NCBI GenBank assembly: GCA_964016885.1
Contig: OZ024753.1
Span: 31,372,001-31,436,000 of the forward strand
Direction of reading: 5' to 3'
Origin: Eledone cirrhosa
Lineage: Eukaryota
Length of the DNA: 64,000 nt
Shown here: positions 55,988-56,096 of the stretch, one piece after another
How the letters are laid out: each line of letters opens with the position of its first letter
Numbering within the stretch: position 1 is the stretch's first letter
Made by a program: the position numbers and the translations under genes
Notes under the pieces: model-generated
Told to the model about the DNA's origin: nothing
Database searches by the model: none
What the model saw: the letters and a program-made list of their open reading frames with translations, nothing else

Positions 55988-55991
<4 letters not shown>

Positions 55992-56096
55992 AACAAGTAA
56001 GACCCCTTACTTGTTCCTATTACCCACTCTACTACCCTAAGTATTGAGTATTTGGTGCGTTATGGTCCACCTGGTTCTTTACCACATTTCCTTCGT
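55988..56096. mobile_element. Family A fold-back; the arm stops at the predicted cleavage site
   Basis: taggaacaagtaagacccc|ttacttgttccta; other copies continue ggacccc|gac. Confidence 0.75.

Follow-up and report, generated by a model that had tools for sequence, protein, structure and literature searches.

Type I hammerhead ribozymes are known from the terminal repeats (pseudo-LTRs) of Penelope-like elements, for which Cervera and de la Pena (2014; PMC4209133) proposed a cut-and-circularise model while stating, in the portion of that paper covered here, that in vivo evidence was absent. Likewise, the covered sections of the Penelope-like literature report no in vivo cut ends. For Poseidon of Anolis (Frangieh et al. 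2024; PMC11167929), the sections covered describe two internal reverse-transcription start sites and a ribozyme that is dispensable for insertion in vitro, with no reads starting or ending at the cut. In other retroelements, genomic 5' junctions have been taken as evidence of template cutting, as in the covered accounts of the HDV-like ribozyme of R2 (PMC3774820) and the twister ribozyme of Perere-3 (PMC8501958), whilst for metazoan retrozymes a host ligase joins the cut ends in vitro, according to the parts covered of PMC7229834 and bioRxiv 10.64898/2026.07.22.740005. The logic of reading cleavage from 5' ends is already known from R2 and Perere-3; what is new here are 3'-side tails at the cut bond, and the literature covered (titles and abstract openings, with subscription papers mostly outside it and supplements not included) holds no report of tailed junctions at a Penelope hammerhead. 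These tailed junctions bear on whether Penelope-like hammerheads cut in vivo, and for what purpose.

The locus under study lies in a window of 64,000 nucleotides, the whole stretch of DNA that was analysed, which is part of a 3.0-Gb animal genome. Throughout, positions within a family are counted from the predicted cut, -1 being C17 and +1 the next base. The copy at 55988 is a family A stub flanked on its left by a (TA)n target repeat (55960..55989). Its inverted arm (55988..56006, minus strand) originates at the +20 start site, corresponds in reverse complement to +1 to +19 past the predicted GUC cut and stops exactly at +1, which bears out the earlier note's claim that this arm ends at the ribozyme cleavage site. 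The sense arm (56006..56099, plus strand) restarts at +6/+7 (56006/56007), leaving a 14-bp hairpin, and carries an 83-nt tail up to the +103 start site. Beyond a further (TA)n repeat (56099..56118), which separates two neighbouring family A insertions, lies a copy of subfamily A1 (56119..56295, minus strand) whose sense arm extends past the cut into stem II. Indeed, 7 of the 8 family A insertions in the window cross the cut into stem II, and the 55988 copy alone stops there; a typical stub of the majority class, at 41954..42178 on the plus strand, has both arms reaching about -42. One clean case in eight is no evidence by itself, and the question was therefore taken to the whole genome. For the single copy at 55988, an end made by ribozyme cleavage is likely, though beyond proof.

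Long copies of family A lead to an autonomous parent, a 3,531-bp unit with a 717-aa ORF starting at +191, and a protein search returned 150 scored matches of at least 91% identity, many with open frames of about 784 codons. Read by eye, the protein has a YRDD catalytic motif and a YIG-bearing C-terminal region; since a Pfam scan of the full 717-aa ORF gave no match, the call of a single ORF with a reverse transcriptase and a GIY-YIG-type nuclease at its C-terminus rests on these by-eye motifs. The protein further carries RWR, of the RWK type, and DKT together with a CxCx5C linker; it lacks CCHH and shows CxxC and CxH towards its end, and family A insertions sit in (TA)n repeats, as expected of the Hydra clade. 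Endonuclease-bearing Penelope-like elements are expected to form partial tandems (pseudo-LTRs) with an inverted truncated copy and a one-sided tail; in agreement with this, units stand in tandem and arms head to head across 20 long loci, where the ends lie at +20 or +103. The resemblance to the Hydra-clade elements described in the covered part of Craig et al. (2021; PMC8557442) is a broad one: a C-terminal endonuclease, RW and DKT, the CxCx5C linker, the lack of CCHH, CxxC/CxH round E and N, (TA)n targets, a hammerhead, and an inverted truncated copy with a one-sided tail are all shared. However, that tail is 30-40 nt there and 83 nt here, and the same portion of the paper reports no junction mapping at the ribozyme site. 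Judged from its sequence, the copy at 55988 is a hairpin-forming stub that derives from an apparently active Penelope-like element whose motifs match the Hydra clade.

With Poseidon (PMC11167929, as covered), family A shares two internal start sites that set the tail, extension of both target strands, and uncut RNA as the main template; they differ in that Poseidon yielded no reads at the cut, whereas genomic copies here mark both sides of it, and in that the Poseidon ORF starts inside the ribozyme, while that of family A starts 191 nt past the cut. Identity as a non-LTR retrozyme, which would show as tandem non-coding units of 150-450 bp with a hammerhead in each, was rejected because the copies are single hairpin stubs or parts of the 3,531-bp coding unit. 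A type I hammerhead and a link to Penelope-like elements are shared with the metazoan retrozymes of PMC7229834 and bioRxiv 10.64898/2026.07.22.740005, as covered, but instead of small repeats in tandem the stubs here are direct offshoots of an autonomous element of 3.5 kb. Three loci are worth recording at this point. One array, occupying a single insertion (L279-L280, G000:C1:437196000-437215999), holds several near-identical units of 3,531 bp, which points to templates made by rolling or read-through; at L291:2251-2754, a 176-nt piece spanning the ribozyme (-123..+53) is present in two and a part tandem copies within an insertion, possibly a retrozyme-like derivative; and at L101:688-1044 a different Penelope-like nuclease end, with a weak Pfam GIY-YIG match, lies upstream of a family A tail, as either a chimera or a second parent.

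The minimum-energy fold of the family A parent RNA is a predicted three-way junction of the type I hammerhead kind with a NUH cut site. In the modelled ribozyme, stem III and loop II are both long, loop III is palindromic, and the core has U3-A8 or C3-A8, neither of them standard; between subfamilies A1 and A2, stem II is altered on both sides, as judged by eye. The type I fold in a terminal repeat, the U3-A8 core variant and the palindromic loop III recall the Penelope pseudo-LTR hammerheads in the covered part of PMC4209133, but those are minimal motifs, in contrast to the long stem III and long loop II of family A. When the window and four loci were scanned against Rfam, the hits were microRNA-like noise only, with no hammerhead among them. 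In the subfamily of L260, L261, L442 and L446, C3 faces A8 in the core, from which lower activity would be expected, yet two tailed copies belong there.

Where, then, do most copies stop? Searching with the tail alone gives 15,459 exact matches in the genome, whilst a systematic sample of 600 kb contained, by tail motif, no more than 14 family A copies, a number that would not support a histogram. We turn to 52 distinct copies chosen regardless of their 5' end and checked by hand (L091-L150, less 8 duplicates). Of these, 31 end within -39 to -45, 5 at -35 to -37 and 6 at -5 to -28, 2 stop at +1/+2, 2 further downstream, and 6 are long, with no stop within -46 to -109. This wall lies inside loop II, at an Initiator-like word whose A is at -41 in two subfamilies of different sequence, and the word fits the Initiator consensus of pyrimidine-A-pyrimidine. 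From its sequence, the wall at -41 is likely a transcription start, and for Penelope elements, Initiator-bearing internal promoters within the terminal repeat have been described (PMC2377424 and PMC3846280, in the portions covered). An mRNA starting near -41 would lack the 5' half of the core and so could not cut itself in cis at its 5' end. Most copies, those of the wall class some 41 nt upstream, come from RNA that was not cut at the hammerhead site. If the reading of a promoter inside the ribozyme is true, it explains why most copies are short hairpin stubs. Two copies (L120 and L125) have long A or T runs at their -41 stop, which are A-rich in the cDNA sense, the opposite polarity to the inserts at the cut site described below.

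Copies ending at +1 form a minor class. Out of 11,115 sense arms, the first 100 listed include 6 that begin at +1, and 3 of the 6 show no microhomology, which puts the class at 3-6 of 100 copies, a few percent; a 5' end defined by the ribozyme, as in R2, was rejected for family A on this frequency and because none of the long arms of the 20 long loci begins there. Two enriched searches supplied junctions around the cut, the first giving 63 junctions and 37 indels or internal deletions among 100 listed of 469 matches, and the second 75 junctions and 25 exclusions among 100 listed of 339; among the matches listed in the second, +1 was found 17 times, against 4, 2, 1 and 4 times at -1, -2, -3 and -4. 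Duplicates were dropped before counting, as were junctions whose opposite arm crosses the cut, which could reflect fold-back re-priming, and about half of the apparent +1 junctions, in which the +1 end meets a long opposite arm via 1-3 bases of microhomology, were set aside. The 50 junctions retained among the matches listed fall at -4 (3), -3 (1), -2 (0), -1 (3), +1 (21), +2 (3), +3 (16) and +4 (3), the +3 group being mostly a hairpin with two bases of microhomology. Taken against an even spread over -4 to +4, the 21 of 50 at +1 has p of about 2e-7, and against the 7 in the four upstream positions combined a binomial p of about 6e-10, for classes that were read by hand, with surroundings viewed for about 80 loci and the remaining rows judged on 35 bases, and for events some of which possibly share an ancestor. 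The genome-wide excess of family A junctions at +1 is beyond chance, and the peak of 5' truncations at N17|N1.1 that the earlier note proposed as a test is present in this family.

The +1 ends join the TA flank directly, short fillers, the element's own ORF or other sequence (L239, L240, L244, L243), and the jumps into the ORF or foreign sequence are twice mirrored in both arms; continuation of this kind is expected from an enzyme running off a template end. At L239 and L240 (G000:C2:271251731-271251813 and C1:319976562-319977495), a stretch of the element's own ORF follows the +1 end, and both arms show the identical junction; to produce this, the RNA template must have been rejoined or a single cDNA copied by fold-back. 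At L243 (G000:C2:329005416), the +1-ending arm runs into GC-rich foreign sequence for which Rfam gave no useful match.

The two other families for which ends at the cut had been claimed behave differently or are harder to read. The family B fragment at 36285..36375 (minus strand), an older one, aligns with 50996-50906 at only 83.5% identity, and its -1 base is common to the copy and the flanking TG repeat, so that its end, at +1 or -1, is compatible with cleavage but ambiguous. The copy it aligns with (50862..50996, plus strand) carries a whole small type I hammerhead motif and tail, with a predicted cut at 50906/50907 and a weak fold. Across the genome, where all 94 sense and 70 inverted rows of family B were read, ends are spread evenly from -4 to +3 and no excess at the cut was found; blunt +1 ends number 5 per list, in the inverted list 5 of about 62 junction events. 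All five inverted +1 ends are followed by AA, which is suggestive only, and the family B cut triplet ends in TA, like the flank. No insert resuming at +1 was seen in 40 family B loci fetched from 100 rows listed, and rows that seemed to show an A run after the cut were discarded, being mostly G-to-A changes or deletions in diverged subfamilies. As for family E, the fragment at 13434..13580 (plus strand) has its 5' end, in AT-only sequence, somewhere from -5 to +1 (+1 being 13439), a range that includes the claimed start at the cut but does not resolve it, as the five bases upstream of 13439 match the family too; its upstream neighbour, read by eye, looks like an inverted E-like tail. A type I hammerhead motif of family E lies at 39154..39218 on the plus strand, with its predicted cut after 39210.

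The inserts at the bond, which speak for the 3' side of the cut, are a stronger signal of cleavage, as read from the copies, than the +1 peak. A search blind to composition, for copies departing from the family after the cut and with no requirement for an A run, returned six untemplated inserts of at least 3 nt among the matches listed (100 of 236), and all 6 are A-rich and sit at the C17 bond; the rest were indels of 1-2 bases, tandem duplications, deletions and arm ends. A separate A-run search covered all 98 matches with an A run within 14 nt, from which duplicate rows and one subfamily whose A run is templated were removed. In all 14 copies that break and resume, the break follows C17 and the element restarts at the G run, with at least 4 G in 11 of the 14, and neighbouring bonds gave no such insert among the 98 rows. 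One further copy (L447) breaks after C17 or at +1 without a clear resumption, and six control loci breaking at -5, -4, +4 or +5 proved to be deletions, a duplication or foreign joins, none resuming in place. The inserts measure 5-42 nt, and 195 of their 267 bases are A, the remainder being 37 T, 25 G and 10 C; one insert is an almost unbroken stretch of 28 A, 7 of the 14 start with T followed by A runs, 10 contain G, and four are followed by an extra G. A whole ribozyme lies upstream in 12 of the 14 tailed copies, against 9 of 78 background arms (p 6e-8). Tailed arms number 12 against 4,661 long arms, about 0.3% as a lower bound; being so rare, they imply a clean passage over the site in nearly all long copies. 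Although stops at -41 greatly outnumber those at +1, not one of the 14 picks up again at -41, and this favours the rejoining of both products of one cut. An extra G in the G run was tried as a mark of rejoining and rejected, as only 2 of 18 copies with the extra G are long and have the whole ribozyme upstream, no more than in the background; RNA editing was rejected as a cause of the divergence in tailed copies, which show no A-to-G excess.

How could these classes of copies arise from one element? Transcription would begin at the Initiator near -41, inside loop II, and give an mRNA whose 5' end lacks half of the ribozyme core; reverse transcriptase starting at +20 or +103 would run off this RNA end and leave the common stubs. 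The downstream terminal repeat would carry a whole ribozyme that cuts a share of the transcripts. Of the two products, the downstream piece would be copied until a stop at +1, whilst host enzymes would add a tail to the upstream piece at C17; in some cases RNA ligation would then put this piece back onto the +1 end, and the tail would be copied into DNA; alternatively to ligation, the enzyme might jump while stem I keeps the pieces together. Clean long copies would stem from uncut or seamlessly rejoined RNA. We consider it probable that the minority of copies ending at +1 or holding A-rich inserts records RNA cut in the cell by the Penelope-like hammerhead. More tentatively, and as a doubtful extension, we posit that the hammerhead replaces the poly(A) signal as the maker of the mRNA 3' end, to which the host adds a mixed tail; that rejoining is the normal route to copies of more than unit length, which rebuild the pseudo-LTR, with the tailed junctions as visible failures of a usually seamless step; and that the promoter inside the ribozyme stops self-cutting at the 5' end.

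Could the same ends arise with no cleavage at all? The enzyme might stall on reaching the base of stem III or once past the G run, or else a cDNA that has folded back might re-prime beside the stem III hairpin, and several observations would sit well with this: about ten sense arms starting at -1/+1 are joined to a long opposite arm by 1-3 shared bases, the +3 position takes 16 of the 50 junctions, and family B lacks a peak. A stall at stem III, however, predicts ends at -1 or -2, where 3 and 0 events were counted against 21 at +1, and it cannot produce A-rich inserts after C17, mainly in copies with a whole ribozyme; we regard it as distinctly improbable. The bond might also have been cut by a protein nuclease, or by ordinary cleavage and polyadenylation falling on the same place by coincidence. 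Ordinary polyadenylation would not favour the survival of the downstream piece, yet here that piece survives to be copied; no AAUAAA lies within 45 nt upstream, and the bond is exactly the one that the hammerhead fold predicts. Even with inserts that are mostly A, including the near-pure 28 A, such a coincidence seems to us very improbable.

Mixed RNA tails have a make-up like that of inserts with T then A runs and with G. This bears on the possibility that the ribozyme does cut, but that the A-rich inserts were added by the reverse transcriptase while it crossed the nick and are not an RNA tail. Inserts of that origin would be T-rich in the cDNA, and the long additions at -41 are A-rich in the cDNA in the two cases at hand (L120, L125), whilst T then A runs in 7 of 14 inserts and G in 10 of 14 are as in mixed RNA tails. 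On the other hand, four inserts have an extra G behind them, as would be expected when an enzyme reaches the end of its template, and the covered part of PMC3774820 describes how R2 gains untemplated bases at run-off; we would call this explanation unlikely. An origin of the inserts in already integrated DNA, through slippage or from poly(A) scraps of other retroelements, is hardly credible: A-rich scraps and repeats are frequent in this genome, but the site has no A run to slip on, no target duplication surrounds the inserts, all 14 lie at one bond, and genuine G-run slippage shows no association with long copies.

Cleavage by the hammerhead, followed by tailing and rejoining, is thus the reading we prefer for this minority of copies. 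The wider proposal of the earlier note, that the copies are fossils of self-cleaved RNA, would hold for a minor class of family A, a few percent, and for the tails at the bond, but not for most copies, which come from RNA uncut there. As with R2 and Perere-3 (PMC3774820 and PMC8501958, as covered), genomic 5' junctions serve as evidence of a ribozyme-cut template; unlike in those elements, where the cut sets the full-length 5' end, it is a minor internal stop here, and the upstream product is recovered too, tailed and rejoined. Tails fixed in DNA at the exact bond would amount to base-level evidence that a transposing RNA was cut, processed and rejoined. As the element is intact, with many near-identical copies, the cutting step is directly testable.

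The window holds further repeats that touch on these families. The family B fragment at 36285..36375 is flanked by an inverted pair, 99% identical, of another small hammerhead-bearing element (36025-36152 and 36598-36725), and hairpin stubs of other families lie within TA repeats at 46500-46638 and 13000-13310. The output of a repeat finder for the window is dominated by TA repeats; the commonest repeat that is not a simple one is a dispersed SINE-like sequence of about 200 bp, found at 1800-1933 and in about 20 other places. Finally, two head-to-head arms of 530 bp at 9748-11046, family E-like and 95% identical to one another, each carry a standard hammerhead core.
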